Shown here piece by piece: positions 13,252 to 50,967 of a stretch of DNA of 64,000 nt. Numbering within the stretch: the stretch's first letter is position 1; each line of letters starts with the position of its first letter. Made by a program: the position numbers and the translations under genes. Location: positions 10,416,001 through 10,480,000 of the forward strand of contig JBHGNT010000012.1 of NCBI GenBank assembly GCA_043228905.1, in the 5' to 3' direction. Source of the DNA: Azolla caroliniana (taxonomy: Eukaryota; Plantae; Polypodiophyta). The notes under the pieces were generated by a model, which ran no database searches, was not told the origin of the DNA, and was given only the letters and a program-made list of their open reading frames with translations.

Positions 13252-13623
13252 TGTAAAGAATACGTGTGCGGAAGCGTATGCGAAACACAGAGTACACAAC
13301 TCGGAGAACGACGGTTTGGTAAAACACAAAAAACGCAGAGATGGAGAGGGAGAGGGAGAGATAGAGACAGAGAGAGCAGACAACTCAATCTATTTCAAAA
13401 TAATGACACTCTGTACATACTTTGTGCTCAATGAGCACCTTTTATACAAGCCCTGACTATCGGGCTGACACAAGTACTGATAGTACTTGACTGCTCATAA
13501 ATGAGCTCCTACACTAACTCCCAAATATATTCCCTCGTGGAATATTTGTTCAATGACCTCCCGGTTTCCGCACCGTTACGGCCTCTTGTTGTGTGCCGGT
13601 TTACGCACCGGTTTACGCACCGG
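13252..13623. repeat. Partial LTR-like segment X inserted in A1 and cut by the T array
   Basis: Begins TG (tgtaaagaat) exactly where A1 integrase homology stops. Has a GA tract and short ccggtttacgca repeats. No partner LTR in the window. Confidence 0.5.
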
Positions 13624-16600: not shown

Positions 16601-17109
16601 ATACATTATTTCATGAGATGTGCGTGGAACTTCGGTTTTTCTCACACTACACACGCCACACCGAGGTTCCACGCACATGTCATGAAATAATATATAAAAA
16701 ACAATAATAATAATAATAATAATAAGTAACTTGTAGTAGCTTACTGGTCAAGGCTTATAAGTATATGTAGAGATGTGTAGAGTTTGAGTCTCTCTTTCTA
16801 CAAATCAAGGAGGATTTTGCTCCCCTTCAAATTTTGTGATAAAGGAAATAAAATAAAATAAGCAATCAAGGAGGATTTTGCTCCCCTTCAATGTTTGTGA
16901 CAAAGGAAATAAAATAAGCTCCTCTTTCCTCTATAAGAGAGGAGGGATAGGGCTTATTTGGGGGAAAAGTGATGTGGTGAGGCCAAAGGTTGTCAACCTT
17001 TGTTTTCTTTCCTTCGTTGCGCCTTGCCCACACGAAATCAACCATCAACTTCGACGTAATCTCTTCTTCATCCATCTTTGTCCTCCCCTACCGCTCTTAC
17101 ACGCCGGGT

Positions 17110-17469
17110 CCACCAATACTTCTCCTTGAGCTTTGCAAAAGTTGCCCATATACCTCGATGACCTGCCCACACACTATCATGAAATTCAGCAATTAGTGTT
17201 TGTTGATCTTGTTTCTTGCACACCACTCGAAGTGTATTTCCATTCTTCCTCTTTGGAAACTTCCATATATGTCCTTCTTTGAGGAAGAACTTGTAGGCCT
17301 TCTTCCTAATTCAGTAGAAGTCTTCCTTTGACCATGATTAATCCTTTGTAGGAGAGCTTAAGTACTTGCCAATTTCGATGAATTCACCCTCATAATTTTC
17401 TACTTTAAACTCCTCTAGCACCCGAGCACAAGAAACTGTAAAGAAGTTTAGGCCAACATCCTCTTCATC
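17110..17469 (-). pseudogene. Captured gypsy pol fragment (RNaseH-integrase linker plus start of the integrase zinc finger) of the A/C lineage
   Basis: Minus-strand translation DEEDVGLNFF...YEGEFIEIGKYL...KFFLKEGHIWKFPKR...EFHDSVWAGHRGIWATFAKLKEKYWW aligns by eye with A2 pol and C (21776-21840). Confidence 0.85.
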
Positions 17470-17505
17470 AGAAGGTTGCATGTTCGATTCACGTCGGGTT
17501 CACCA
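17467..17505 (+). other. DNA copy of the 3' half of cytosolic tRNA-Trp (positions 38-76 including CCA), forming an extended PBS of a T LTR
   Basis: atcagaaggttgcatgttcgattcacgtcgggttcacca matches plant tRNA-Trp(CCA) as recalled, with one CG>CA change. It has an encoded CCA and lies 1 nt from the LTR end. Confidence 0.88.
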
Positions 17506-20500
17506 ATGTCGCGAAGTTTCGCTTGCGTGTGTCTCTCGAATAGGACCGTCGGGGCCTTGGACCGGGGAGACACAAGAGGTGAGGAAGTTGGAGATTAAGA
17601 CAAAGACATGGGGAAATATACATAAGTTTTGATATAAATTAAGCTTTAAACAATAGTTATGTTTAATATCATGATTTTGGTGGTTTTATTTCTTTCATAG
17701 CATCAATTTCATCATTATTCAAAAATGGCTAATCAACACAAAAGGGCTGAAAATAATATGGTGAAGGCGAGTCTAGTGGGCTCCGAGCTCGGCTACTTCC
17801 AACGGCTATGTTGCCTCGATTCGGAGTAGCTCTCGTGCCACTACAACCTCCCTTCCGCAACCAGCCATTGAGTTGGCTACCATCGGGATACCGAAGGAGC
17901 CATTGTGGAAGGAAACGAAGCCCTAAACTCTGTTGAGTAAGAAGTAAAATAGAATCTAAACTCATAAACCCTAAAAACCTAAGTCCTCTAGTATTTTGAG
18001 GAGAAAAGAAGAAGCTCTCAAAACCTAACCCTAGAAGGAAAAGATGAAAGAGAAAGGGATAAGGAGAAAGGGAGGCTACAAAACCCTAACCCTAGAAGAA
18101 GAGGAGAACAAGATGAAACCGTAATGGTACACCCCTAAGCCAAAATGGGCGACCCCCAAATAAGTCCTATCCCTCCTCTCTTATAGATGAAAGAGGAGCT
18201 TATTTTAACATTACATGCTTCTTCTTCTTCTTTTCCTTTATCACAAAAATTGAAGGGGAGCAAAACCCTCCTTGATTTGTAGGAAGAGAGACTCAAACTC
18301 TACACATCTCTACATATACTTCTAAGCCTTAACCACTAAGCTACTATAAGTTACTTATTGTTGTTGTTGTTGTTGTTTTTTATACATTATTTCATGAGAT
18401 GTGTGTGGAACCTTGGTGTGGCGTGGTGTGGCATGGTGTGGCGTGTGCACTGTGAGAAAACCTGAGGTTCCACACACATCTCATGAAATAATGTATAAAT
18501 AAATAAATAATAATAATAATAGTAACAAGTAACTTGTAGTCACTTAGTGGTTAAGATTTATAAGTATATGTAGAGAGGTGTAGAGTTTGAGCCTCTCTTT
18601 TTACAAATCAAGGAATATTTTGCTCCAAATAAATAAATAAAAGCATGTAATGTTAAAATAAGCTCCTCTTCCTCTATAAGAGAGGAGGGATAGGGCTTAT
18701 TTGGGGGTCGTCCATTTTGTCTTCTAGGGGTGTATCACTAGGGTTTCATCTTCTCCTCTTCTTGTTGGGTTAGGGTTTTGTAGCCTCCCTTTCTCCTTCT
18801 TCTTTTCCTTCTAGACTTGGGGTTTCAAAGCTTTTTCTACCTCCTCATCATACTAGAGAACTTGGAATTTTGGGGTTTGTTAGTTTATTTCTATTATTCT
18901 ACATCTTACTCAAGATAATTTAGGGTTTTGATTTCCTAAACAACGGTTTTTTCGGCATCTCGGTGGTAGTAAACTCAAAGGCCGATTGTAGTGGCACGAG
19001 GGCTATGAGGGCTACGAGGGCTACGAGGCAACATAGCCGTCGGAAGTAGTCGAGCTCGGAGCCCACTAGACTCGCCTTTGCTAGACTATTTTAGCCTTGA
19101 TTATTTCATAATGATTGTTGTAAGAACCACCGAAATCGTGGTGTCAAGCCTAAGAATTGTAAAAAAATAATAATAATACCCTAATTTATATCAAAATTTA
19201 TGTTACATATTTCCCCATGTCTTTGTCTTAATCTCCTACTTCCTCACTACTTTTGTCTCCCCAGTCCAAGGCCCCGGCGGTCCCGTTCAAGCGTCACACG
19301 CACGCGAAATTTTCGCGACATTGGTGAACCCGACGTGAAAGAACAGTAGGGGAGGACGGACACAGACGAAGAAGATTTCGTGGAGATGATGTCGAAGACA
19401 ATGGTGGATTTCACAAGGAAAGGGCGCAACGAAGACGAAAAGAAAACAAAAAAACAAAGGTTGACAACATTTGGCCCCGCCACATAACTTTTTTCTTTGG
19501 CACATGCCGGAGGATGTGCGGTTTGGTGGGGGTGGATGTTGTGGTGTGGCGTGTGCACTGTGAGAAAAAGTGAGGTTCCACGCACATCTTATGAAATAAT
19601 CTATAAAAAACAATAATAATAATAATAATAATAAGTAACTTATAGTATCTTAGTGGTTAAGGCTTATAAGTATATGTAGAGATGTGTAGAGTTTGAGTCT
19701 CTCTTCTTACAAATCAAGGAGGATTTTGCTCCCCTTCAATTTTTGTGATAAAGGAAATAAAATAAAAAAAGCACGTGATGTTAAAATAAGCTCCTCTTTC
19801 CTCTATAAGAGAGGAGGGATAGGGCTTATTTGGGGGTCGCCCATTTTGGCTTAGGGGAGTACCATTACGGTTTCATCTTCTTCTCCTCTTCTTCTAGGGT
19901 TAGGGTTTTGTAGCCTCCCTTTCTCCTTATCCTTTTCTCTTTCATCTTTTCCTTCTAGGGTTAGGTTTTGAGAGCTTCTTCTTTTCTCCTTAACATACTA
20001 GAGGACTTAGGTTTTTAGGGCTTATGAGTTTAGATTCTATTTTACTTCTTACTCAACAGAGTTTAGGGCTTCGTTTCCTTCCACAATGGTTTCTTTGGTA
20101 TCTCGATGGTAGCCAACTCGGTGGCTGTTTACGGAAGGGAGATTGTAGTGGCACGAGAGCTACTCCGAATCGAGGCAACATAGCCATTGGAAGTAGCCGA
20201 GCTCGGAGCCCACTAGACTCTCCTTCACCATATTATTTTCAGCCCTTTTGTGTTGATTAGGCATTTTTGAATAATGATGAAATTGATTCTATGTAAGAAA
20301 TAAAACCACCAAAATCGTAGTATTAAACGTAACTATTGTTTAAAGCTTAATGTATATCAAAACTTATGTATATTTCCCCATGTCTTTGTCTTAATCTCCA
20401 ACTTCCTCACCCCTTGTGTCTCCCCGGTCCATGGCCCCGGCGGTCCAATGTCGCGACCAAGCCCTAAAATATCCCGAGTAAGATGTAGAATATTAGAAGA

Positions 20501-21999
20501 AAAACTCTCAAACCCTAAAATCCTAATTCCTCGAATATGTTGAGAAGAAAAGAAGAAAAGTAGAAAGAAGCTCTTAAACCCTAACCCTAGAAGGAAAAGA
20601 TGAAAGAGAAAGGGATAAGGAGAAAGGGAGGCTACAAAACCCTTACCCTAGAAGAAGAGGAGAAGAAGATGAAACCCTAGTGGTACACCCCTAGAAGACA
20701 AAATGGGCGACCCCATAATAAGCCCTATTCCTCCCCTCTTATAGAGGAAAGAGGCGCCTATTTTTAACATTACATGTTTTTTTTTTCCCTTTACCACAAA
20801 AATGGAACGGGAGCAAAATACTCCTTAATTCTTCACAAGAGAGACTCAAACTCTACACCTCCCCATGTATACTTATAAGCCCTAACCACTAAACTACTAC
20901 AACTTTATTTATATTATTTTATTTTCATTCATATATTACTTTATGAGATGTGCGTGAAGCTTCGCTTTTTCTCACACTACACACGCCACACCACGACAAC
21001 GTGTGAAAGGGGTGAATGCCACACTCATATGCTAGCATGTTGTAAATAGGACTTAAATTAGAATCATAAAAGAAAAGCTAGATGTAAAGTTAAACATGTG
21101 CACATGTGATGTGCGCTCAAACATTTGTATATATAAAAATAAGACTAAAGCCTAGTAAGATTTGAGTGTATACAAAGGGGTGCAAGCAAGGCGTGTACCT
21201 TACACCTCCAAGATAAGAGACAATTGACATAGCATTAAGCTAAGATGTTTCTTTTATATTTATCTTCATCATTGTATTTTCCACATGTAAATTCTCATAC
21301 ATGAGAGGTTGGATGAGTGAGATGGTCATCATGCATCACATGCATTCCATACATTCCATGCATTGTATGTATGTCTTGTACCCTCACATGCATCATATGC
21401 ATGGGGACATCTATAAAGGAAGAAAAAGAAAAAGGATGGGGGGAAGCTATATATTGAAGGAAGAAACCTCTAATAAAAGAGGTAGTTATCTTATTGGTGA
21501 GGTATCTTGTCTCTCAAAATTGAAGTCAAGGGTTCTCTCTCCCTCAATCTGTCTCAGAATTGGAATCTCTATCTCTCTCTCTATCTCTCTCTCTCTATCT
21601 ATCTATCTTAAATTCTTTCTCGCTAAAGCTAGTAAAAACTTTGAATCCTTCCGGTCCAAGACCCCTGTGGTCCCGCTTCATTTCGCGAACATGCAAGGAT
21701 TTCCTCGACATCTTTCTTGGTAAACCCGACGTGAAGAACCCGACGAGGATCGACCAAAGATCCACAAGAGTCCTTGGGCAGGTCCTAGAGGAACATGGGC
21801 GACGTTTGCAAAGCTGAAGGAGAAGTACTGATGACCGAGCATGTACAAAGATGTACTTCATTTCGTGTCCACATGCGAAAACTGCTAAGTACATTCAAAC
21901 ATACATCACCGTGATGAGTTACGACCGATGTACCCACTCACCATACACTTCAAATGGAGGATGGATCTAGTCTCGATGCCAGTGGGAGTGGGACAAAGG

Positions 22000-35215: not shown

Positions 35216-38200
35216 CTAAGGAGCATGTTGTCGCATGCTAAATCGCCGAAAAAATACTAGGTTGAGGCGATGTACACAGTTGTTTATCTTATCAACAGAT
35301 CCCCCTCAGTACCGTTGAAAGGTGATGTCCCACAAAGGGTGCGGACAGGAAAGGATGTCTCCTACCGACATTTGAGGGTGTTCAGATGCCTAGTGTATAT
35401 GCATGTGCCTAAGAATCAGAGGTTGAAGCTTGATAGTAAGTCGAAGCCATGCATATTCATGGGTTACTTAGAAGATGAATTTGGCTACAGGCTATGGGAC
35501 TTAGTCGATAAGAGAGTAGTGAGGAGTCGGAACGTAGTCTTCTTGGAAGATAAAACGATTGAGGACTGGAAACAACAGAGGTCGGAATCGACTCCCCAGT
35601 CAGCCCCCACTACCACCGACTTAAGGCCAAGTGAACCGACACAGTCGGTTGTTCTGAGATAGCCATTCGGCACAGTCGAATCCGAGTCAGACGACTCAGA
35701 GAGATTGACCAACTATGAGTTTGAGTCAGCAGATTAGTTAAGATCGATTGAGGAATATGAGTTGGAGTCATCCAACCTTGACAAGCCAATCGACAGAGAC
35801 ATCCAAACTGAAGCCGGCAACGAGTGGAAGGAGATACCCACTTAGATAAAGGAGAGCACTAACAACATATGTCAGTCAATACATCCTCTTGACTGATGAA
35901 GGTGAGCCAGAGTGCTATGATGAAGCCATTGCCGACAAGCACAGAGAAAAATGGCTAAGTGCGATGCCAGATGAGATGGATTCTTTGCACAAGAATTATA
36001 CCTACTACCTAGTAGAGTTGCCAAAAGGTAAGAGAGCACTGAGGAATAAATGGGTGTACAACTTGAAGACTGGAGAAGTCAACAGTGCGCCCAGGTATAA
36101 ATCCCGCATAATGGTGAAGGGGTTCCAACAGAAAAAGGGTGTCGACTTCAACGAGATTTTCACACCAGTCGTGAAGATGACATCCATCCGAACTGTTCTG
36201 AGCATAGCTGCCAGCATGGATCTAGAGATCAAACAATTGGATGTCAAGACAACATTCTTGCATGGGGAGCTGGATGAAGAGATTTACATGTAACAGCTTG
36301 AAGGCTTTGAGTAAAAAGGGAAAGAGAACCTAGTGTGTCGACTGAAGAAAAGCTTGTATGGTTTGAAACAAGCTCCCCGCAAGTGATACAGAAGTTCGAA
36401 TCCTTCATGGTGGAACATGGGTTCCAGAAAACACAGGCGGATCATTGTGTGTTCGTCAAAAGGTACGATGAAGGTGACTTCTTGATTCTCTTATTATATG
36501 TAGATGATATGTTGATAGTTGGTCAACATACAAGGAAAATTGGTAGCTTGAAGAAAGCATTAGGCAAGTCGTTTGCCATGAAAGATCTTTGGACCGGCAA
36601 AGCAGATATTAAGGATGCACATAGTTCGAGATAGAACTAAAACAGTGTTGTGGTTGTCACAAGAGAAATACGTGATTAAGATCCTAGAAAGATTCAACAT
36701 GTCGGAAGCAAAGTCGGTCGGCTCTGTGTTATTGACTAGCTACAAGTTAAATGCAAAGCAATGCCCGAGAGGGGAGAAAGAAAAGGTTGAGATGAGGAAA
36801 GTACCATATGCCTCAGTCATCGGCAGTCTAATGTATGCTATGGTCTACACGAGACCAGTCATAGCTTTTGATGTGGAAATAGTAAGCCGATACATGAGTA
36901 ATCCAGGAAGAGAACACTGGGCAGCGGTGAAGTGGATACGCAGGTGCGTGAAAGGCACCTCGAGAGTATGCCTTAGGTATGGTGTCGGGAAGCCTATGCT
37001 CGAAGGGTTTACTGACTCGGGCATGTCGGGGGATGTAGACTCAAGCCGATCCACATCAGGGTACATAATGACCTATGCAGGGGGGGCAGTATCGTGGAAG
37101 TCTGTGGCCTTGTCGACCACAGAGGTAGAGTATATGGCAGCGGTAGAGGCTGGCAAAGAGCTTTATTTGGATCAGAAATTTTCTCAATGAGTTGGGGAGG
37201 AAGCAAAGGGAGTTCTTGCTTCATTGTGACAGCTAGAGTGCCATACATCTAGCAAAGAATGTTGCGTACCACCTGTTACCCGGCCAGCAAAGGAGTTAAA
37301 GACCAGAATGTGAAAGGGATTGTTATTCAGAATCTATTTTAATTAAGTAGAATAGTGGGACGTGAACAGACGGACCGGAATCGGTATGCCGATCCGGATC
37401 CGGACCGGTTCCAAACAGGTGCCGGTTGGCACCGTTTTGTACTCAGCACTAGTGACCTATATAAAGGCCCGGTTACAATGTAGAACTTTGACGGATAATT
37501 AATAGAGCTTCTTGTTTTATCTTTAATTGTTGATTACCGTTCTGTACTAATTGTTCTATCATACGCATGCATCAAATTTAATGCCGTATTGCTAAGTAGC
37601 CAATTAAGTCTGATTAATCGTTGTGTCTTAAGTTATCTCGCCGTAACACCCCTTTGGTGAAGTGTCTTCCGTAGACACCCTGTGTTAGGCCATTGTCCAG
37701 CCCTAAGGATTAACACAGTTTTTGGCGACCACGATGGGATTGATGGTGAGAGAGACGACAAGCATTGAGAAGCATTGTGGGGTGGGGGTGGTGCCTAGAA
37801 TGGCTCCACCCCCCTCCCAAGGGGGTTCAACGTTAAGGGGAGAGAGAGGAAGAGAGATGATGAGAGAGAGAGAGAGATTGAGAGAAATGGTTATTGTTTT
37901 CATTCATTCCCCATAAGGGGTTAAATAGGTACAAAGGGGTAGATCCACAAGGGTGCAAGCCCCTTGGCATTCACACCTAGTCACTCACTCACACCTCTTT
38001 GTATCTACCACACACACAGTTACATTCACACTCATAATCGTATAAAATCCCACATACATATCAACACATTACATCTTTCACCCTCACTTATCACACTTAT
38101 CAATCACCCGTACATCTCGTACGGTAACACAATATGGCACGCCCGTGGGAGAGTGCCTTGCACGTCAATCCCACATGCCTTGATCATAATTTTTATTCGA

Positions 38201-38223
38201 CTGGAATTTCCACCGGTCCTCTC

Positions 38224-38445
38224 AACGATCGACCCCCTCGATTAGAGTGCTGGATTCGAGCATCGTCGCCAGTCAGCGACTCTTCTGCGACACGAACATT
38301 CTCATTCTATCGACTTATGAACTTTGGTAACATCAACGATTGACTCCCTCGATCGGAGCGCTTGACTCGAACATCTCCGTCGGTCAGCGAATCTTCATCG
38401 ACACGAACATTCCCGTTCTGTCGTTTCACGAACTTCGGTAACATC
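38224..38445 (+). repeat. Two diverged ~111-bp direct repeats inside G
   Basis: aacgat(c/t)gac...gacacgaacatt...gaactt(t/c)ggtaacatc occurs twice. Confidence 0.8.
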
Positions 38446-39993
38446 ATTTGGGTCGTCAAAAAAACGTTGTATGTATGTATTTTCCTTTTGTTGATTTTGT
38501 GAGTTGTGTGTCGATCGCGTCCCTTTCTTTTAAGTTGATGAGTTTTCAAAATTTCGTAGGTGCCCTTTGATTTTTAAAAATTTTATTATATACCCTCGAG
38601 TTTTGAAAATTTCATTCAGTATCCCCAACTTTCTGAAATTTTAGGCTGCTACCCTCAACATTTTAAAATTTCTTCGCATGCCCCTTATCATTCTCTTTTT
38701 CCCTCTTTTTTCTTTTCTTGTTTCCTTCTTTTTTTCTCTTGCTTCTTGTTTTCTTCTTCTTCAACGTCGTTTCCTCTATGTTTTCTTTTTCTTCTTCCCT
38801 TTCTCTTTTTCTTTCCTTCATCTCCGTTTTTTGTTTTTTCTTCCTTCTTTCACCACCGTTATGTCCATTGTCCATGGTTATCACGCTCTATTCTTGTCTG
38901 TCGCTGTGTCTGTACGGCCTTCTCTGTTCATCTCCGTCTCTGTCTCTGTTTTCGTTTTTGTTTCCATCTCTGGCTCCGTCGTTGTCACCGTCACCGTCGT
39001 CATCACCATCACCATCCGTCGTCGTTATCTGTCCGTCATTGTCGTCTGTCGGTTCCTCCTCGTCCAGCATTGTCTGTCTGTGTCACTGACTCTGTCCGGT
39101 CCGTCTGTCCGAACTAGCCGTTATTGTCTTTCCGGCCCTCCAGCCACTGTTCGGTTGTTCGGCCCGTCGTTTCAACGTTGTCGTGCCTTTCGGCTCCGGA
39201 TCGTTGCGTGAGTCGGGTGGGAACCACAGAGGTCTTGGACTAGGAGAAAGAAGTTCGTGAGATAGAGATTAATTATGAATAAATAGCGAAGAGAAAGATA
39301 AGAAACTCGTGAATCACACGAGTATACTATATTAATCGGTACTTAGGGTGTTAAGAGAGAAGTAGATGTATAAATCGTGAATCCCACGAATAATTTTTGT
39401 ATTGATTAATACTTAATCCAAATAATCAACAACAACTACAATGTGCTCCCCATCCTTATATAGTGATGGGAGAGACTAAGCATAGCTACATGCTTTTTCT
39501 CATATGTTCATGCACACTAAATGTGCATGTGATGCTTTTTTTTTTATTTCCTAAGTATAGGGCTCATGCACGCTAGATGTGCATGAGTTATTTTTAGTGT
39601 CTCGTGTTTTTTCTTTTTCATATATTAAAGAAATACACGATTTACCTTTTAATAAAGGTATGCATAAATAAAGGTCTTATACATATTAAATCTATATTTA
39701 AAACACTTAAGATAATTTAATGTAATGGTAAGGTTGGGGTTTGTCAACGTGGAGGTGCAGAGTTCGAATCACGCCCTACGCAGTAGTGAGTATTTCTTTT
39801 TTTTACATTTATGTCTCTTTATCCGGCTCTTCCTTGCCGGTATGCCGTTTTCCTCCTTGCCGGTATGCCGTTTTTCCTCCTTGCCGGTATGCCGTTTTCC
39901 TCCTTGCCGGTATGCCGTTTTCTTCCGGTTCTCACCGAGCACTCCATTCTCTATCCGGAGGGACAAAAATATAATTTCCACATAGTGTGCAAC

Positions 39994-42900
39994 CTACACT
40001 ACGACACTCGCCCCCTCCAAACCCGCACATCCTCCGGTATGTGCCGAAGTTCTTGATTCTTCGTATCCGTCTTCATCCGAAGCTTCCTCCGATTCTCCCC
40101 TTATGTCGACTATGAGTTGTAATCCACTTTCTTCGCTTCCCGCATCATTGTGGTCTTCGTCTGATTGCTCCTCGTTGTCGGCCTCGACTTGGATCACATA
40201 AGGTTTGTCGTCGGTCCGCTTCTTGAAAATCTTCACCCGCTTCCCGGCTATAGGCACTCGCAGTATTGTTCCATCCAACTCGGACAGTCGGTACGTCCCG
40301 TTGTCGAAGACCTTCCAAACCTCGTACGGCCCGAACCACCTTTTCGCGAATTTCCGCATCGTTGTATGTTGATGGTCCAAGCTACTATCATAGACGATCA
40401 CCCAATCTCCTTCTTCAATCCTCCTCGGTCGTAGTCGGTGCTTTGTGTCGAACCGACGTTTTGTTCTGGAACCGTGCTTCTTGTTGTCGGCGTGACGCTT
40501 CCGCTACATCTTTCGGTCTTCCCTCCAGTTGTCGTATCCGGACCGCTAGTAGTTCTTCCCGGCTCATCTCTTCCTTCCACGGTAGTATTGTCCATGTCGC
40601 GATTGCGGTTTCCGTTGGCATTACCGGTGCTTGTCCGGTCATGAGTTCTGCCGGCATGTAACCGGTCACGGAGCTATGCGTCGTCCGATCCGCCCATAGT
40701 GCATACGGAAGCATTTGTGGCCAATCCTTCACCCTTCCGTCGCATGCCTTCGCAAGTGCTTTCACGATCGGACTATGTCCTCGTTCGATCTTCCCGTTGG
40801 CCTCCGGATTGTAGGCCGTTGTCAACGTTAACCGAACTCCATGTTTGGCGAAGAATCCCCTAGCTTTGTCCGAGTCGAGTTCTCCCCGGTCCGCAATCAC
40901 TTGTCCTACGCAGCCGTACCTACAAAACACTTCTTCCAAAAGAAATTGGCACACCGTGTGCACGTTTTCCTCCGAAGCGCTCGACCTTCAACTTGGTTTG
41001 TGAGATCTTCTCGAGCTAACACCAAGTATTTCTTTTGTCCAATCCCGGTCGGCATAGCTACAATGTCGACCATCCACTTGAAGTTGATTGACGGTGAGAA
41101 TGTCGGATGCAACTCATCTCGGTGTCGGACCCCGGAGTAGACTTGACATTTCTCGCAGCTTTCTGTGAACTCCGCGACATCTTTATACATGTTCTTCCAC
41201 CAATATCTTTGCTTGATTTTCACAAAAGTTGCCCATGTTCCTCGATGTCCAGCCCAATCGGATTCGTGGAACTCGGACATTATCCGGTTTCGTTGCTCTT
41301 TCGTCCCGACTACTCGAAGTGGTATCCCATCCGGTCTTTTCGGCGTCCTCCATATTAAACCGTTTTCCAAGAAGAACTTTTGGACTTGCCTCTTCTTCCT
41401 TCGGATCTCGGCTCTCCTTTCTTTATCATTGGTTGAATCCTCGACCTCTTGTAGCATCTTCCCGATCATCAAGGTTTCCCCCTCGTATTCTTCTTCCCGG
41501 AATTCTCGGATCACGTTCACTCGGCATATGTGTTCTGACGTGAAGTAGTCTTCGGAAACTTCTTCATTATCTGATTCGGTTATGTCGTCTTCAAACCGCG
41601 CCCTCGATAACATGTCCGCTACCGCGTTGTCCTTCCCCGAGATGTGTCGAACCTCCGGATTAAGTGACTTGACATATGCAATCCACCTTAGCATAGCCAC
41701 ATCCGGTATCGTACAACACCGCATCATCCCGAGTATCGGAAGACAATCCGTCTCGATCACCACTTCAGCTCCGATCAAATAATCCCGATCCGATTTTATC
41801 GCCGACATGACTCCCCACAATTCTCTTTTGACTTGTGCATATCCGCGTTGCCTTTCGTTGAGGACCTTTGCTCCAAATCGGATCGGATACCGCGAACCAT
41901 CCGAGTCGGCTTGATTGATGACCCACCCGATACCGGTTGGACTTGTATCAACCGTTACTATGATTGGCCGCTCGTAGCTTGGCTTCTTAAGTGATTCCGC
42001 CCTCCATAGTGTCTTCTTGAGCTTCCTCATGGCTTTAGTGTGTTCCGGTTTCCACTCGAATTTCTTACCTTTCCGCAACAAGTGATAGAGCGGGTCCGCT
42101 ATATGTGCATAGTGCGGAATCCATATGTGATAGAATGCACACGCACCCAGAAACCTTCGGACTTCCGATGTTGACTCACATACTTCCTTCATAGCTTGAA
42201 TCGCATCGATCTTTGTTGGTGACGGTCTTCGGCCGTAGGGTCCACATAGATGTCCGACCACCAATATTTCTTCTTGCCCGAATGCCGATTTCTCCCCGGA
42301 AAGTGTTAGGTGCACATCTTCTAGCTTTCGCAACACTTTCTCGCAATCATGAATATGGTCGACCACGAACTTTCGGCATCCCCGATCATCCATAGTCTCA
42401 TCTTTTTCTTCCACCGCGCATCCTTTCATCGGAATGTCATCTAGAAACGGCATCGTTATCTCCGGAATGCAATCTCGAAGCACCTTGTTCATCGCATTCA
42501 TCATATGTGCAACCGAGTTTGTCGCTCCTTGTGGTAGTGTGCACATTCGAACTAGTCCTATCGGTGTCCGCATGGTAGTGATGTCTCGGCTCTCCACGGC
42601 TAGTTGGAATTGGTCATACCCCGAGTATAGGTCCCCGATGGAGTATATCGCACGTCCGGCAAAAGCTTCCGCGAATTCGTCCACTATCGGACCGACTCCC
42701 GAGTTCCGGATCGTGACCTTGTTCACCGGTTGCAAGTCTTGGATGAATCGGAGTGACCCATTCTTCTTCGGAACCGTAAACCATCGATTTGAGTACGGAG
42801 CACTTGATGGCTCTAGAATCCCCATCGCCACCTTCTCCTTGAGCAAGTCGATGACTTTCGGAATATGTGCCCGTGGCACCGGAATCGGCTTCAGGTTCCA

Positions 42901-43602
42901 CGGTACATGATCAATCGTGAAAATCACCATCGGCTCCACTATCTTTGGATCAATGCATCCGATCTCCCTCGATGTGAACGCGAATGCTTTGCCATGTTGC
43001 TCCAACATCTCTCGAAACCGTTTTTCTTCTTCTTGTAAGAGGAACCCACCTCCACCGATCCGAAGTTTCTTCCGGGTCTCATCTGTGAAGGCATGTCCGA
43101 TATCCACGGACTTCCGAAGTGTCGGATCTCCCGAGACTTCTTTCTTCTTTTGTTCGCTATCGGCGGGTAGTGGTCCCGCGGCCGGTTTCACCTTCTTCTC
43201 CACGGTCTTGTATTTCGTACTTACCATTGCTTCTTCTTTGCGGAGCGCATCCGGCCCCATTTTCGCAACGATCTCGTACATCTCGACCGATTCCACCAGG
43301 ACTACCCGGTTCCCTTGGCTTTTATCTTCCGCAAGCTCTTCAAGCCGTTGTAGTGTATTCCCATAGAACACTTCCTCGATCACTCCCACGATTTCTTCGT
43401 CTTCTTTTATTATTGATGCCGACCGTAACTTATCCTCCACTTGTCGGTATTGTTTCTTCATTCCTCCGGTTACGGCCGTGTACGTAGATGCCCCATCCGG
43501 GCCGATTCGTACTTGTTTTGCTCCGAGAGTTTTCTTCCTGTGTGGGGTATCAGGGCTTCTCGGACTATCACTTCCCCACTCCGCAACAGTCCTCTTTAAA
43601 AA
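39994..43602 (-). pseudogene. pol (RT-RNaseH-integrase) of A2; open except for two 1-bp indels in integrase
   Basis: ORF 40906-43461 (QGATNS, FLDD, TVDTS, HESDWAGH..CEKC) continues in 40415-40963 and 39994-40401. The frame is open upstream to 43602. No chromodomain. Confidence 0.88.
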
Positions 43603-45635
43603 TCAATTCTCACTTGGGACAAGAGTTCCCTCTTGTTCCTTTCGTGATTTGCCGGCACTGTTAGGAATTGGACGGATTTCCCTCCGTTTTGGCTCCGAAT
43701 TCGCGCAAAAGCCGCACCACTATCGAGCACCTTCGTCTCCATCCGTGAAGCCGTGATAAAGGGTTGGCCGAGGATGACAGAATGTGAAACCTCATCCTGC
43801 ACAAAGAAATTTTGGTCAATTTCGACATCCCCGATCTTTACCGTCACATCCGGACAAGCCGCAAATAGGTCTTCTGTCGTTTTCGTGGCTGCCCGAATCT
43901 TCCATCCATGGTTGGTATTTATAGGCCACTTCCCCTTTCGGTAGAACTCCTTGGACATCAAGTTGATCTCCGATCCGTGATCAATCAATGCTAGCACGGG
44001 TTCTTTGATGTTGCCGATTCGGACCGGAGTCTCCGTAGTCGCACGTGCCCAGTGTGGCCTTGTATAGTGGGAGTTCGGAATTTCGCCTTCCACTTCGGTG
44101 TCGTTCATTGAAACGGTATTTGCATTCACCCTTGGAGCATTTTCCTCCGTACTTTGTCTCTTCCTTTTCACAAGATCCACGAGAAGATCGTGAAACTCCT
44201 TCTTCGCTATTCCGAGTAGTTCCCGCAGCGAAAAATCGACCCGGCTATCCAAGATTCTTTCCTCGAACACTCTTTTCAAGTCGGTTTGTTGTTCTATGTC
44301 CGAGGCGAGCTTGAATGCCGGAGTCGCCTTTTCTTTTCCCTTACCTCCGGAGTTCCAGCTTTCCGATATCTTCGATGGTCCGGCCGCATCCTCCGTGCGC
44401 CGTCGTTTCTCGTCCACATACACCTCATGTAATTGACACAGGGCGTATATGCTATTCTTGTCGACAGGGCACTCCCATCCCGTAGCTTCCCGGACGCCTT
44501 CCGCGGTGTTTCGGATATCGTTGGAGTCGGTTTTCTCGGTGTTTCCTAGCACCTCCGGCCAGAAAGACGCCTTCGCTCCCGTTGACTCCCCGACACATAT
44601 TCCCGCGGTTGTCGCATAGTTGCTTCTTGCCGCTAACTCCTCCTCGAGCACCTTCTTCATGCCGCCTTTCCGGAAGTTCGGTCGGAGTGGCTTCCGAGAG
44701 TCCATCGAATGAATCCGATTTCCCTCGTAGTAGATGAGATCCCGTCGTAGCGCCTCCTTATGGTCGTCGCAATCCCTCCGATCGTGTTCGGCGCTATCGC
44801 ACCATATGCACCGTCGATCCGTATATTTGGAGCTTGTGGGGCGGTCATCCGACTTCTTCACCATCGCGATCTTTAGATTCTCCATCTCCTTCAGCAGCTG
44901 CTCCAACGTAGACGCGTCGACTCCCTTCTCGGCCGTAATCTCCCGAGCCCTCGGTTGATGGTCTTCCAGTCCCGTTCTCGGTTTCGGAATCGGTTCCGAA
45001 ACCCTCTTTTCTTCGTTGGCAAGCCATTGCCCCCTCTTCGTGTACCGCGCGACGATATCCCGCACGCTTTCCCATGTTTCGGTGAGGCCGCTTTCGGTGG
45101 TCGTGTCCTCAAGAAGCACTCCGAGATCTTTCCGGTCCCGGACGTCCACAGCTCGCAAAAACATGATGACTTTGTCCGGTGCAAGAATAGTTTGATCTCT
45201 CGCGGACAACCTCCCGAACCGACTTTCGAATGTCGAAAACACTTCGAGGACCTTCAGCCCCTTACCTGACGTTTCCACCCAATCCTCGAATCCCCTCCGC
45301 GTTGCCTTGGAGGAGTCCTCGATGGCAAACGTGGTCTTTAACGCCTCTTCGAATGCTTCCCACGTCGGATTTTGTTGTTGCAACCCGTGGATACTCCCTT
45401 GAAGCCCGTCGGTCGCCACCCGGTTAAAGGATGTCACTTGCAGTCCTTCCGAAGCCCGGCACTGGAGCATCTCCGCCTTGTAGTCCTGCAAATATCGCGA
45501 CACATCCTTACCATTAAATTGCCCGTTGCGTTGCACGAGCCGCTCTACTGATGCCGAAATCTCCGACATCGTGCGTTGTTCTTGAAGCATCCGTTCGAAC
45601 ATCGCCATCATATTGTTAGCTTGTTGAGCCTCCAT
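43596..45635 (-). CDS. Gag-protease ORF1 of A2
   Basis: Uninterrupted ORF from ATG 45635, with Zn knuckle CIWCDSAEHDRRDC and aspartic protease LIDHGSEINLM...ILGQPF. Confidence 0.88.
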   Translation of the reverse strand: MEAQQANNMMAMFERMLQEQRTMSEISASVERLVQRNGQFNGKDVSRYLQDYKAEMLQCRASEGLQVTSFNRVATDGLQGSIHGLQQQNPTWEAFEEALKTTFAIEDSSKATRRGFEDWVETSGKGLKVLEVFSTFESRFGRLSARDQTILAPDKVIMFLRAVDVRDRKDLGVLLEDTTTESGLTETWESVRDIVARYTKRGQWLANEEKRVSEPIPKPRTGLEDHQPRAREITAEKGVDASTLEQLLKEMENLKIAMVKKSDDRPTSSKYTDRRCIWCDSAEHDRRDCDDHKEALRRDLIYYEGNRIHSMDSRKPLRPNFRKGGMKKVLEEELAARSNYATTAGICVGESTGAKASFWPEVLGNTEKTDSNDIRNTAEGVREATGWECPVDKNSIYALCQLHEVYVDEKRRRTEDAAGPSKISESWNSGGKGKEKATPAFKLASDIEQQTDLKRVFEERILDSRVDFSLRELLGIAKKEFHDLLVDLVKRKRQSTEENAPRVNANTVSMNDTEVEGEIPNSHYTRPHWARATTETPVRIGNIKEPVLALIDHGSEINLMSKEFYRKGKWPINTNHGWKIRAATKTTEDLFAACPDVTVKIGDVEIDQNFFVQDEVSHSVILGQPFITASRMETKVLDSGAAFARIRSQNGGKSVQFLTVPANHERNKRELLSQVRIDF

Positions 45636-45651
45636 CTCCTTGCCACCCGTC

Positions 45652-45669
45652 TTCACGTCGGGTTCACCA
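45652..45669 (-). promoter_or_regulatory. 18-nt PBS complementary to tRNA-Trp
   Basis: TGGTGAACCCGACGTGAA, 4 nt from the LTR; the same PBS occurs in C and T. Confidence 0.88.
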
Positions 45670-48007
45670 ACTGTGTCGTGCCTTTCGGCTCCGGATCGTT
45701 GCGTGAGTCGGGTGGGAACCACAGAGGTCTTGGACTAGGAGAAAGAAGTTCGTGAGATAGAGATTAATTATGAATAAATAGCGAAGAGAAAGATAAGAAA
45801 CTCGTGAATCACACGAGTATACTATATTAATCGGTACTTAGGGTGTTAAGAGAGAAGTAGATGTATAAATCGTGAATCCCACGAATAATTTTTGTATTGA
45901 TTAATACTTAATCCAAATAATCAACAACAACTACAATGTGCTCCCCATCCTTATATAGTGATGGGAGAGACTAAGCATAGCTACATGCTTTTTCTCATAT
46001 GTTCATGCACACTAAATGTGCATGTGATGCTTTTTTTTTTATTTCCTAAGTATAGGGCTCATGCACGCTAGATGTGCATGAGTTATTTTTAGTGTCTCGT
46101 GTTTTTTCTTTTTCATATATTAAAGAAATACACGATTTACCTTTTAATAAAGGTATGCATAAATAAAGGTCTTATACATATTAAATCTATATTTAAAACA
46201 CTTAAGATAATTTAATGTAATGGTAAGGTTGGGGTTTGTCAACGTGGAGGTGCAGAGTTCGAATCACGCCCTACGCAGTAGTGAGTATTTCTTTTTTTTA
46301 CATTTATGTCTCTTTATCCGGCTCTTCCTTGCCGGTATGCCGTTTTCCTCCTTGCCGGTATGCCGTTTTTCCTCCTTGCCGGTATGCCATTTTCCTCCTT
46401 GCCGGTATGCCGTTTTCTTCCGGTTCTCACCGAGCACTCCATTCTCTATCCGGAGGGACAAAAATATAATTTCCACATAGTGTGCAACCTACACTACGAC
46501 AACGTCATCGTCGTTCCGGTCGTCGGCTGTCCGGCCATTCCTATCGCTTTTCGGCGTGGTGTCGCCGTTCTAGTTGTTGTCCAACCGTTCCAGCTGTCTG
46601 TCCAGTCGCTGATTTTTGTTGCCGCCGGTTGTCTGTGTCCGACCCTATCTCCCGGTCCTCCATTCGTTTGTCTGGCTCGTCCGGTCCGTCCATCTTCGTC
46701 ATTAATTTTTCGCCGCCACCGCTGATTATTTGTCGCCACTCCGGTCGTTGTTCAGCTACTGTCCCAGCCATTTGTCCGTTGTCTTCCGGTCGTGCGTTCG
46801 GACCGTCCTCCCGGCCAACTGTCTGCTTCCCCGGCCTTGTCCGACCCTCCGTCCGCTCCGGCTGCTACAACCATTGTCCGGCTATTCCGATCGGTTTCTA
46901 ACCCTTCCGACCGCTCTTTCCGCTCTTCGGCTGATATTTGGCCGTTGTTCCTGTTGCTATCTAGCCCCCTCTCTAGTCGAAACTCTCCTGATGCGACCGC
47001 TGCTTTGTCGGGTTTTGTGGTCGTCTCCGTCGGCCGGCCGTCATCAAGCGTCGTCATCTGGTTGTCGTATCGGCATTTGTCCGGTCATTGGCTGTTGTTT
47101 AGCCACTATTCGACCACTCCAACCGCTCCAACTGTTGTCTAGCTGCTCTTCAGCCATTGTTCGGCCATTCCGGCCGCTCCGACTGCTGGTTCATTTTTCT
47201 AGCCATTGGTCATTCTTTCCACTGCCCTTTCTCTTTGTCACCGTCATCTCTGGCAGACCCTTCATTTTTCCGTCTTGTTGTCTGGTCCTCCTTGTTCTTC
47301 TTTGGTGTTCTCCCGTATCCTTCTATTTGTTGTTGATGATTTTAGCAATGGTGACCCTAATGATTATGATTACAACGAAGAATGATGACCCTAATGATGA
47401 TGATTACAACGAAGAATGAGTGCACATTCTAATTCCTTCATATGCATCATCTTGGAGATCATGGTTTATGAACAAACCATGCTTATTATGAGTGCCACCA
47501 TGATATGAATCATGCTCACATGCGTTATGGCGGTTAATGTAGGTGTTAGTATCAGGGTTAGTATAAGGGCCAGAGGCACGCACTTAGGGTTAGTACACAA
47601 AGAGTTTGGGCTAAACTTATAAGGCCCATGGGTTGTAGGAGAAACTAGGGCTAGGGTATCTAGTGCAAGGAATGGTAGAGGAGTTAGGGTTAGGAAAACA
47701 GGAACAGAAACTAGGGTTAGGGTTACAGGAGTAGTGATTATCCAAAGACCAAAAATGATGATAATGCTCGGAGACATCATCAATCTACCATTTTCATGAT
47801 TTCTCGCACATTTCTTGTACATTGTCGGTTTGATTTCTTGCTCTCTCGCACATACTTCTACCGGATATCATTCTGTGAGTTCCTCTTGCACATCATACTG
47901 CCGCGGATAATTCGTCAACACCATCTCCAAAGGGGTCGGCTTAATGGTCGCCAAAAGGGGGACCGGCTTGGTGGGACAAATGGGCAAAACACACAGCCGA
48001 GCTCTAG

Positions 48008-48523
48008 TTGCTAAGGGCGGACGCGGAAAACCGGCAGAAGGATGGCGACGACTGTTACATGCTAACAAAGGAGGACTTCACCGCCGTAAGAGATGAGTTA
48101 GCCGAAGATTTTGTAACTCTGGCGGAGGAACAATCAGTAGTGGTCTGGCAACTGGTAGCACAGCTAGACGATGATCGATTGGATGCTCAAATCCAGTTTG
48201 AAAGCTATAAGCGGACCAGGCTACGGAAAGAAGACGCAAAGCAGGTGGCGACCATCAACCTTAGCGATGAGGAGCCATCGTCGGAGCAAGGACCGGACGG
48301 AGACAAGGCTGGGGCGAGTCCACCAGAGTCAAATCCGGCAGAGCAGCTAACAGAGGAATCACCGCCACAACCGCCGGTACCGGGACCCGAACAGATGCCA
48401 TCTAAGGAGCAACAGTCAGAGGAGCCAAAGCCATAACAGCAACAGCCACAACAACAACAGATTTCCGAAGAACCATTGGATACCGTGGAGCAGAGTATTC
48501 TGGATATCTTGGACGAAGGCTAA
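48008..48523 (+). pseudogene. Orphan acidic/Gln-Pro-rich ORF remnant near the right LTR of G
   Basis: 142-codon open stretch that continues in frame past one stop as QQPQQQQISEEP...DEG*; no recognisable domain. Confidence 0.4.
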
Positions 48524-50967
48524 GGGGCAGATAGTGGGATTCGACATACAAGGTACTGTCCCACGGGCGTGCCATGTGTTACCCGGCCGGCAAAGGAGTT
48601 AAAGACCAGAATGTGAAAGGTATTGTTATTCAGAATCTATTTTAATTAAGTAGAATAGTGGGACGTGACCAGACGGACCGGAATCAGTATGCCGATCCGG
48701 ATCCGGACCGGTTCTGAACATGTGCCGGTTGGCACCGTTTTGTACTCAGCATCAGTGACCTATATAAAGGCCTGGTTACAATGTAGAACTTTGATGGATA
48801 ATTAATAGAGATTCTTGTTTTATCTTTAATTGTTGATTACCGTTCTGTACTAATTGTTCTATCATACGTGTGCATCGAATTTAATGCCATATTGCTAAGT
48901 AGCCAATTAAGTCTGATTAATCGTTGTGTCTTAAGTTATCTCGCCGTGACACCCCTTTGGTGAAGTGTCTTCCGTAGACACCCTGTGTTAGGCCATTGTC
49001 CGGCCCTAAGGATTAACACCACTCCCGAACCAAGCATATACAAAGGAGATATCATTGGTTACGGGAGAAAGTGGAGGAAGGAGAGTTTACCCTTGTGAAT
49101 ATCCATACTGATGACAATGGATCCGAAATTCTAACAAAAAACCTACCGATGGACAGACTCAGTGTTTGTCGACAGAGGACATAAATAACATACCCCTCCC
49201 CACTGGAGTGAAGGGGGAGTTTGTAAGGAATATGTCCCTCTAGTGGGAGGAGTCGACTACTCGGAAAGAGCCGACAGTCGAAGACAATGGAGCAGTCGAA
49301 TGGTCGGATAAGAGCCGATAGTCGGTCGACTGATTAGTAATACTATTATTTTTATTATTAGATAATAATAATGGCCATGATTTTAAATAGCCCATTCTGT
49401 GTATTAGTATAAATACACCTAGGGAAAACAGAACCGAAGAGTGTATGAACTGAGTGAAGTGAAAAGAGAGAGATAGTGAGTGAGGGGCACTATAGTTGTG
49501 TTCGTAACAACAGACGTAAAGAGCCATGTGAGGTTGATACACTCCGCACACAGAGGGTTGTACTCTGATATCTCCATTGTATATCCACTGTATAGTGAAG
49601 TTTTGTTCTCCGTGGTTTTCTCCACGTTAAATCTGTGTACACTCTTTTCATTCTATGTTTCCAAGTTTTGCATTTCGGCGTATTCTTTTCTTGTGAAATA
49701 ATGATTAGTACATTGTGCATTGCCAACAGAGCTTATGTATGGACAAAAGCCGGTAATGCCTATCGAAAGGACGATCGCCTCATGGGTAGTGATACCATGG
49801 GAGAATGAGATGAGTCGAGAAGAATTATTAGCGGCGCAGATAAGGCAGCTTGAAAGAAGGCCTGAAGATCTAGAAAATGCGTGAAAGATAATGGAGGCAG
49901 CTCGAGTGAAGGACAAGATTCGGTTCGACAAGACACATCGATTGCGTCCCAAGAAGATCGAAGATGGAGATTGGGTATTGGTCTACGACAATAGCCTTGA
50001 CAACCAACACAAGACAACAAGAATGTTCGCAAGAAGGTGGTTCAGATCGTATGTGGTGACGAGTGCCAACGACAATGCCACCTACCACCTCGCGGAGCTA
50101 GACGTATCAAGGTTGTTCATACCCATTGCGGGGAAAAGAGTAAAGATCTTCAAGAAAAGACAAGGTGAAGGTTTTGACCTCGATGACCTCAACATATGGT
50201 AGGGCGGAACCCACAAACGTGAGCGAGGTCAACGAGGACGTGGAGGAATCGGATTGATCACCGTAGCCGAAATCTCACACTCTCTTCTTGGCATGTACCG
50301 GAGGACGTGTGGTTTGGTGGGGGTGGATGTCGTGAAGATTTTCGGCAACGGTGTGAAAATCACGTGGAAAGGAGAAAACCGAGAAGGTGCAATGTGCACA
50401 TGCATGAAAGGGGTGATGATTACACTCGTATATTAGCACATTAATGTGCACATGGGTTTTGAACCTTACACCCCCAAGCTAGGAGACAATTGACATACCA
50501 TTAAGCTAAGATGTTTCTTTAAAGTTTATTTTCATCATTGTACTTTTCACATGTAAATTATCATACATGAGAGCTTGGATGAGTGACATAGTCATCATGC
50601 ATCACATGTGATACATGAACGCCAGATGGCAAGACATGCATTGTATGCATGTCTTGTACCCTCACATGCATCATATGTATGGGGGCATCTATAAATGATG
50701 AAAAAGAAAAAGGATGGGAGGCAAGCTATGTATTGAACGAAGAAACTTCCAATAAAAAATCTAGTTTTCTTATTGGTGATGTATCTTGTCTTTGAATATT
50801 GAAGTCAAGGGTTCAATCTCTATCTCTCTCAATCCGTCTCTCTCTCTCTCTCTCTGTATCTATCTTAAATACTTTCTCGCTAAAGCTAGTACAAACTTCG
50901 AATACTCCCGGTCCATGGCCTCGATGGTCCCGCTTCATTTCGCGAACATGCGAGGATTTCCTTGACA

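Follow-up and report, generated by a model that had tools for sequence, protein, structure and literature searches.

A clade of LTR retrotransposons in the genome of Azolla caroliniana lacks a polypurine tract (PPT); a conserved site with the sense 3′ end of a host tRNA stands there instead. We suggest that a second host tRNA, tRNA-Arg(UCU), primes the plus strand there, two bases upstream of U3. The lineage appears to have given up the PPT and taken on an inverted, structured PBS, with host tRNAs now priming both strands, the second on a DNA template via a three-way junction, and with some families using two Arg tRNAs, one per strand; we put the probability of this reading at about 0.8. The conserved site in place of the PPT and the rare fusions of tRNA to U3 together make it likely that a host tRNA starts both strands, in support of the original prediction of a second tRNA as plus-strand primer.

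The site in the PPT position

Genes for tRNA-Arg(UCG) and tRNA-Arg(UCU) were located in the host genome for comparison. The copy of element G analysed here lies in a stretch of 64,000 nucleotides (the window). Next to its 3′ LTR we found the sense 3′ end of host tRNA-Arg(UCU) with CCA, minus one base, and a 2-nt spacer. Purines make up 9 of the 20 bases before U3 and there is no PPT, whereas an ordinary one (40007-40018) is present in element I, which is nested in the same copy and serves as an internal control. The longest purine run before U3 is 2-5 in all 18 site-bearing sibling LTRs, none of which has a normal PPT. The inward-facing tRNA-Arg-like sites at both LTRs and the missing PPT, as originally predicted, are thus confirmed, and the second site does match a host tRNA.

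The site together with the LTR start has 1,379 exact matches in the genome (0 for the reversed control). Among 30 G LTRs sampled, all 16 of the 3′ type are preceded by the site, as are three shared LTRs; this survey and the genome count rule out chance or a single-copy accident. On C1, 24 of the 33 PBSs have a same-strand site at most 25 kb downstream and none has one on the opposite strand. The spacer measures 2 nt in 119 of 148 sites; the 4-5-nt spacers of H-type elements, non-coding relatives of G, are not explained by a simple trimming of 2 nt.

Upstream of the CCA-bearing part lies a small hairpin, preceded by a match to the T-arm. In 84 distinct upstream sequences, 284 of 336 hairpin cells are Watson-Crick pairs (shuffle mean 214, maximum 236, in a shuffle that ignores relatedness), and T-A/G-C and G-C/A-T swaps are seen as covariation. 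A segment corresponding to tRNA positions 51-58 occurs within two edits in 81 of these 84 sequences, against 11.7 in shuffles; the 16-nt core of the site was fixed by the search pattern. Co-folding with RNA parameters predicts a three-way junction of −48.3 kcal/mol with the UCU tRNA versus −30.5 kcal/mol with the UCG tRNA. By eye, the sense RNA could itself fold into a T-arm-like stem.

Classification of the clade and the copy in the window

The G clade belongs to Ty3/Gypsy (Metaviridae). Its elements are about 9 kb long, with the layout LTR-PBS-gag-pol-extra ORFs-LTR; G siblings have the order gag, RT, RNase H and integrase between direct LTRs flanked by a TSD, and a tRNA PBS follows the 5′ LTR. 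Coding is confined to one strand, and gag-pol runs from the PBS towards the site in the PPT position; this gene orientation rules out a reversed element whose second site is a normal PBS. Two different elements placed back to back were likewise ruled out for the family, the window copy nevertheless being a chimera. In a tree of RT-RH-INT (38 rows, without labelled references) G clusters with proteins of ferns and liverworts and stands away from those of Malus and Pinus, the fern and liverwort relatives being 40-50% identical. Of 80 sites in metagenome contigs, 32 are preceded by G-type 3′ coding in the same orientation; one further metagenome match lacks the hairpin and was taken as chance. 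Contigs from sequencing runs under two further organism labels cover the site and are uninformative on strand or ends. Viral contigs gave neither a match to the site pattern nor an RT relative.

The tRNA-Arg sites had been likened to those of Tat/Ogre elements. The matches to host tRNA-Arg(UCG) and (UCU) stand, but the Tat/Ogre identity (TatI-III, Ogre, Retand) was dropped because no additional archaeal-type RNase H was found with Pfam profiles in the sibling ORFs scanned or among the precomputed domains of 120 homologs; in G-type pol, RNase H continues directly into the integrase zinc finger. Athila differs in its tRNA-Asp/Asn PBS, that of G being tRNA-Arg, and Phygy in its 4-bp NCGN TSD and tRNA-Trp PBS, since G has a 5-bp TSD and the Arg PBS. 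The PBS of element I is presumably that of tRNA-Trp.

In a correction to the original prediction, the interior of the window copy (Table 1) consists of non-G sequence, and gag-pol is lost. Its two G LTRs are identical at 424 of 442 positions, with the TSD CCACC/CCACT, and ARAGORN detected no tRNA gene anywhere in the window. Two more tRNA sites, those of the inverted relative H, lie within it (38135-38174 and 47943-47953). The 5′ PBS is, as expected, a complement of the tRNA-Arg 3′ end including CCA and stands 7 nt from the LTR, but its length is atypical: in siblings the PBS matches tRNA-Arg(UCG) over about 11-12 nt only (828 exact copies), and the longer match is therefore read as a reverse-transcription scar. 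This copy is a dead chimera, and its 18-nt PBS is read as a strong-stop copy transferred onto H. G plus-strand strong-stop DNA likely jumped onto a co-packaged H RNA, which would then have been copied up to its trimmed 5′ end, before synthesis returned, as it seems, to G 608 bp ahead of the 3′ LTR.

Table 1 Components of the chimeric G copy, in window positions
Feature	Position	Strand	Remarks
G 5′ LTR (442 bp)	37274-37715	+	Interrupts a Copia element in its RNase H region; TSD of 5 bp, one mismatch
Minus-strand PBS, full 18-nt complement of tRNA-Arg(UCG)	37723-37740	+	Read as plus-strand strong-stop scar
U3-side part of 3′ LTR of non-coding relative H	37741-38129	−	Short shared stretch joins PBS scar
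tRNA-Arg(UCU) site of H in PPT position	38130-38174	−	5-nt spacer, hairpin, T-arm match
H internal region, ~2.5 kb excluding nested element, no pol	38175-47958	−	Ends exactly at H spacer/5′ LTR boundary
Nested young Gypsy element I	39179-46501	−	LTRs 39179-40006 and 45674-46501, 827/828 identical; 4-bp TSD ACGT
H minus-strand PBS, tRNA-Arg(UCG) type, degenerate	47943-47953	−	
End of G 3′ extra-ORF region	47969-48533	+	Remnant ORF 48008-48436; follows 10-nt filler
PPT-position site	48534-48576	+	T-arm-like 48534-48544; 4-bp hairpin 48546-48556; tRNA-Arg(UCU) 3′ end with CCA 48558-48574; spacer 48575-48576
G 3′ LTR	48577-49018	+	

Strong-stop scars, tRNA–U3 fusions and the start of the plus strand

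Priming of the minus strand by a tRNA at the PBS is established retroelement biology, and here both the PBS and strong-stop scars were seen. The tRNA-Arg concerned is UCG in G, G2 and H and UCU in K, M and N. We identified 81 strong-stop scars on the UCG/U5 side; 27 of the 30 examined stop at 18 nt and three at 19 nt. An 18-nt stop is described for HIV-1 as the result of m1A58 (PMC8599865).

Mature tRNA sequence, with CCA and a base absent from the element, is joined to the U3 start at four clear independent loci. In the young family G2, a fusion (C2:12.0 Mb) comprises 57 nt of tRNA in three copies that go back to one event. An H2 fusion (C2:12.74 Mb) holds about 51 nt, with A58 read as T, and is located on the 5′ LTR, the 3′ site of the same element being ordinary. 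The fusion in K, likewise a young family (C16:17.53 Mb), is an end-to-end junction of LTRs in which the U5 end is followed by the spacer, a T, tRNA sequence of exactly 18 nt, AG and U3; two copies lie inside one TSD, and the 3′ site of K itself is not identical to the tRNA. The fourth locus (C6:16.78 Mb) has 63 nt of tRNA. At C9:12.74 Mb a fusion is probable, with the LTR orientation taken by eye from the 2-nt spacer and a TATA-like motif, the BLAST comparison with G/G2 LTRs not being significant. The U5 tRNA of G, G2 and H is UCG, which excludes minus-strand read-through as the source of UCU fusions on their LTRs. The fusions are few in number, and those of G2, C6 and the complex locus at C3:8.09 Mb could alternatively come from RT switching from element RNA to free tRNA. 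Four candidates for fusions to a U3 starting with TGTTG all proved to be U5 ends by spacer and sequence, and clean U5-spacer-TG-U3 junctions were represented by a single match, joined via shared bases and uninformative.

In the proposed mechanism, the 5′ PBS is where tRNA-Arg starts the minus strand, and once the first jump has taken place the minus DNA would present the three-part site to the second tRNA. Pairing is predicted over about 28 nt of that tRNA (acceptor end, T-stem and T-loop), with the 4-bp DNA hairpin looping out. RT would extend this tRNA across the 2-nt spacer into U3, RNase H would remove it, and integrase would trim the 2-nt overhang. Where removal failed, the tRNA would be copied and remain fused to U3, which we propose as the origin of the fusions.

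A first alternative is that the element's own RNA acts at the site as a tRNA mimic, escaping RNase H and priming from where it lies in the manner of an atypical PPT, with the fusions as by-products of template switching. The exact PPT position, a conserved hairpin that could function in RNA, and a genomic site uncorrected to the tRNA (1,379 copies of the element type versus 19 true-tRNA loci) all suit such a mimic. Ty1 and Ty3 PBSs, however, are likewise uncorrected despite tRNA priming there (PMC5371799); moreover, at the K junction it is true tRNA, unlike K's site, that stands between the right end of the cDNA and U3, and the H2 fusion sits on a 5′ LTR. We consider the mimic unlikely.

Still less probable is replication from either strand, also raised in the original prediction, with the second site as first-strand PBS on antisense genomic RNA. 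It would account for the mirrored layout of the two sites and for the same tRNA at both in K, M and N, but is disfavoured because coding is on one strand and the 81 strong-stop scars lie on the UCG/U5 side, whereas the 19 true-tRNA loci include no 18-nt scar at a G/G2 U3 end. The site might also bind a tRNA for packaging, strand transfer or small-RNA control, the plus strand being primed otherwise. The 3′ tRNA site of Drosophila gypsy is dispensable for cDNA synthesis (PMC1635307), and in the C3:8.09 Mb chimera a strong-stop DNA landed at the site; yet the gypsy site is complementary to the tRNA on genomic RNA, whereas that of the G clade is tRNA-sense, its CCA end usually lying 2 nt ahead of U3 in surroundings that offer no purine tract. 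A role of this kind instead of priming seems very doubtful.

Comparison with known systems

That the second strand is primed from a PPT is taken to hold for retroviruses and LTR retrotransposons in general (PMC5371799, PMC10886601). Our literature search, which covered mainly open-access papers, found no description of a tRNA site in place of the PPT. If tRNA priming of the plus strand is true, the G clade would be a natural high-copy exception, in which RT is able to begin plus-strand synthesis from a tRNA bound to DNA and integration-ready ends are still made, raising questions of RNase H recognition and of the packaging of two tRNAs. Annotation tools that score the PPT would be expected to misjudge the clade; the signature to seek in other plants is T-arm match, hairpin, CCA, 2 nt and LTR.

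Yeast Ty3 and retroviruses resemble the G clade in that a tRNA primes the minus strand, the plus-strand primer lies immediately before U3, and strong-stop synthesis copies the tRNA end; in Ty1 and Ty3 the genomic PBS is not rewritten from the tRNA either. Their plus-strand primer, however, is an element-encoded purine-rich RNA, in contrast to the tRNA-sense site without purine tract described here (PMC5371799; PMC13332604). Athila, Tat, Ogre and Retand share the Ty3/Gypsy domain order, 5-bp TSD, 9-12 kb length and 3′ extra ORFs, and Ogre, TatIII and part of Retand also the tRNA-Arg PBS; the extra RNase H that defines Tat is absent from the G clade, and the Athila PBS is mostly Asp rather than Arg (Neumann et al. 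2019, PMC6317226). No Pfam match to Athila ORF1 was obtained in the extra ORFs tested. The accessible text of Neumann et al. (2019) on non-chromovirus OTA elements mentions no second tRNA site (PMC6317226).

In Ty3 and Drosophila gypsy, too, a bipartite or double PBS includes a second site related to tRNA close to the 3′ end, and T-arm pairing occurs. These second sites are tRNA-complementary on genomic RNA, opposite in polarity to the G-clade site, and the available descriptions assign them to minus-strand priming or end bridging, not to plus-strand priming (PMC5371799; PMC1635307). Helenus TRIMs also contain a tRNA-like sequence in an LTR retroelement, but there it is a promoter inside the LTR, and Helenus retains both PBS and PPT (PMC10886601).

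tRNA-Arg sites at both ends of G and its relatives

As the original prediction had it, the Ty3/Gypsy element G of the window carries tRNA-Arg sites at both LTRs. Its 5′ LTR is followed by the complement of the last 18 nt of tRNA-Arg(UCG), and its 3′ LTR is preceded, 2 nt from U3, by a sense copy of the tRNA-Arg(UCU) 3′ end with CCA, one base of which is missing. Pattern search found genes for UCU and UCG isoacceptors in the host genome (named by ARAGORN in three of six and two of four loci given, respectively). G is inserted in a Copia element, within its RNase H region (5-bp TSD, one mismatch). No purine tract precedes its 3′ LTR, unlike in nested element I, and the predicted lack of a polypurine tract (PPT) extends to its siblings, none being found at the sampled G LTRs (the best-matching 30 fetched of 40 listed). 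In this sample the primer-binding site (PBS) directly follows 14 LTRs and is absent after 16; the tRNA-sense site precedes every one of the 16 without a PBS and 3 of the 14 with one. Both sites are family features. There were no solo LTRs among these 30 (L001-L030).

Complete G siblings (~9 kb) carry gag, RT, RNase H, integrase and extra ORFs, all coded in the PBS-to-site direction. The site with the LTR start has 1,379 exact genome matches and the PBS of G and related G2 has 828, against 0 for either reversed control. On contig C1, a same-strand site lies within 25 kb downstream of 24 of 33 PBSs, mostly at ~9 kb, and an opposite-strand one downstream of none of the 33. The layout is common to the related families G2, H (non-coding), K, M and N, the last three having tRNA-Arg(UCU) at both ends. 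A metagenome scan returned the site in at least 123 stretches; among the matches listed (80 sites, 78 loci with flanks), G-type 3′ coding sequence lies upstream on the same strand at 32 sites and opposite-strand RT fragments at 2. These contigs look like close relatives, largely from one data series. RT homologs of 40-50% identity occur in a fern and liverworts.

Coordinates of LTRs, tRNA-U3 fusions and the nested element
Feature	Position	Strand	Details
G LTRs	37274-37715 and 48577-49018	+	identity 424/442
Clear tRNA-U3 fusion, G2	C2:12.0 Mb		
Clear tRNA-U3 fusion, H2	C2:12.74 Mb		tRNA on 5′ LTR, ordinary site at 3′ LTR
Clear tRNA-U3 fusion, K	C16:17.53 Mb		from the 19 true-tRNA loci
Clear tRNA-U3 fusion	C6:16.78 Mb		
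Nested element I	39179-46501		young Gypsy, long ORFs, 4-bp ACGT TSD, normal PPT

Site structure and tRNA copies joined to LTR ends

Upstream of the tRNA end, the site contains a hairpin of 4 bp and a segment matching positions 51-58 of the tRNA. Among 84 distinct upstream sequences, 284 of 336 hairpin cells are Watson-Crick (shuffle mean 214, maximum 236, kinship ignored; 22-91 in slid registers), with double-sided changes at two pairs, and 81 of the sequences carry the T-arm segment (11.7 when shuffled, likewise ignoring kinship). The site is separated from U3 by 2 nt in 119 of 148 cases and by 4-5 nt in the remainder, mostly H types. When the tRNA 3′ end is co-folded with the site on the minus strand, a three-way junction is predicted in which ~28 tRNA bases take part and the hairpin loops out; values are approximate, since RNA parameters were applied to a DNA strand. 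In G siblings (e.g., L035:637-682), a small hairpin and short T-loop-like match also follow the minus-strand PBS, so the 3′ site may have arisen by inverted duplication of a structured PBS. At loci L020 and L118, an I-type LTR end lies at ACGT just before the site's hairpin, upstream of the LTR; such positions suggest the conserved site as a target for I insertions.

On the minus-strand side, 81 places in the genome bear the UCG complement at its full 18 nt. Of 30 such scars examined, 27 end after 18 nt and 3 after 19; each follows an LTR end and leads into unrelated or displaced sequence. The length fits a strong-stop at m1A58 of the tRNA primer (PMC8599865). Locus L058 (G000:C597, first 540 bases) is a fold-back product of LTR, 18-nt PBS scar, sense tRNA-Arg(UCG) piece and inverted LTR, and at L333 (G000:C10 14.18 Mb) two K LTRs are joined head to tail via ~56 nt of read-through minus-strand tRNA.

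True UCU tRNA sequence adjoins an LTR end at 19 loci, and a longer copy was found at 36. Among the 30 fetched of these 36, the U3 start is joined in 5 loci (three events) and probably in 1 more; 14 copies lie at U5 ends, 6 have long spacers and are unclassified, 2 lack an LTR and 2 prove to be tRNA genes. In 5 of the 30, position 58 is a base other than A. At L334, L338, L343 and L346, nearly whole mature tRNA-Arg(UCU) with CCA stands beside LTR ends; such copies give rise to tRNA pseudogenes.

The K fusion is the most telling case. From the U5 end it runs through the PBS spacer, a single T, 18 nt of tRNA and no more, and the 2-nt spacer into U3. Two copies of it lie within one insertion bounded by a TSD, and the 3′ site of that insertion itself differs from the tRNA. 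This junction would be expected from joined linear cDNA ends if the left end had kept the copied tRNA primer; LTR-LTR junctions serve such end inference in HIV-1 (passages of PMC13332604). Template switching onto a tRNA can also explain the G2, C6 and complex C3 cases, and would still need a tRNA paired with minus-strand DNA at the site. At C3 8.09 Mb (L151:2109-9715), H LTRs (99.3%) surround the 3′ half of a G2 element in inverted orientation; a tRNA piece precedes the second LTR, and the unit adjoins tRNA-like sequence at its insertion point.

The window copy as a G/H chimera

In the window, the 18-nt scar is followed by the reverse complement of H, which starts inside the H 3′ LTR, continues via H's own site and internal region and ends exactly at the H spacer/5′ LTR boundary (47958); 10 filler bases and the last 608 bp of G follow. 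G plus-strand strong-stop DNA likely jumped onto co-packaged H RNA already devoid of R-U5. As a chimera, this copy is therefore dead. Element I, Phygy-like by its TSD and with a putative tRNA-Trp PBS, was inserted later. Elsewhere, repeats 0.2-2 kb long, some direct and some inverted, are densely clustered at 13600-21000.

Proposed plus-strand priming and known systems

The tRNA site is a real, conserved feature, and its position, conservation, tRNA identity and hairpin covariation, with PPT absence and tRNA-U3 fusions, are matters of observation. There is good indirect evidence for a plus-strand priming route: the proposal that a second tRNA primes the plus strand gains support from site conservation and the fusions, and we infer such priming at the site with a probability of roughly 0.8. 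That the element's own RNA mimics the tRNA at the site and primes in place is unlikely. Replication from either strand, also proposed originally, is very improbable, because coding is confined to one strand and 18-nt scars number 81 at U5 ends versus 0 at G/G2 U3 ends; a non-priming role of the site we consider just as improbable.

No description of a tRNA-primed plus-strand route was found in the literature searched. The 3′ site of the G clade is opposite in polarity to the 3′ tRNA sites known from Ty3 and gypsy (PMC1635307). The clade resembles OTA non-chromoviruses, but it lacks, by Pfam, the extra RNase H that defines Tat, and its PBS differs from the usual Athila PBS. In a tree of 38 rows that held no labelled references, G grouped with fern and liverwort proteins, apart from those of Malus and Pinus. 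Apart from its plus-strand primer, the G clade works like Ty3 (PMC5371799).
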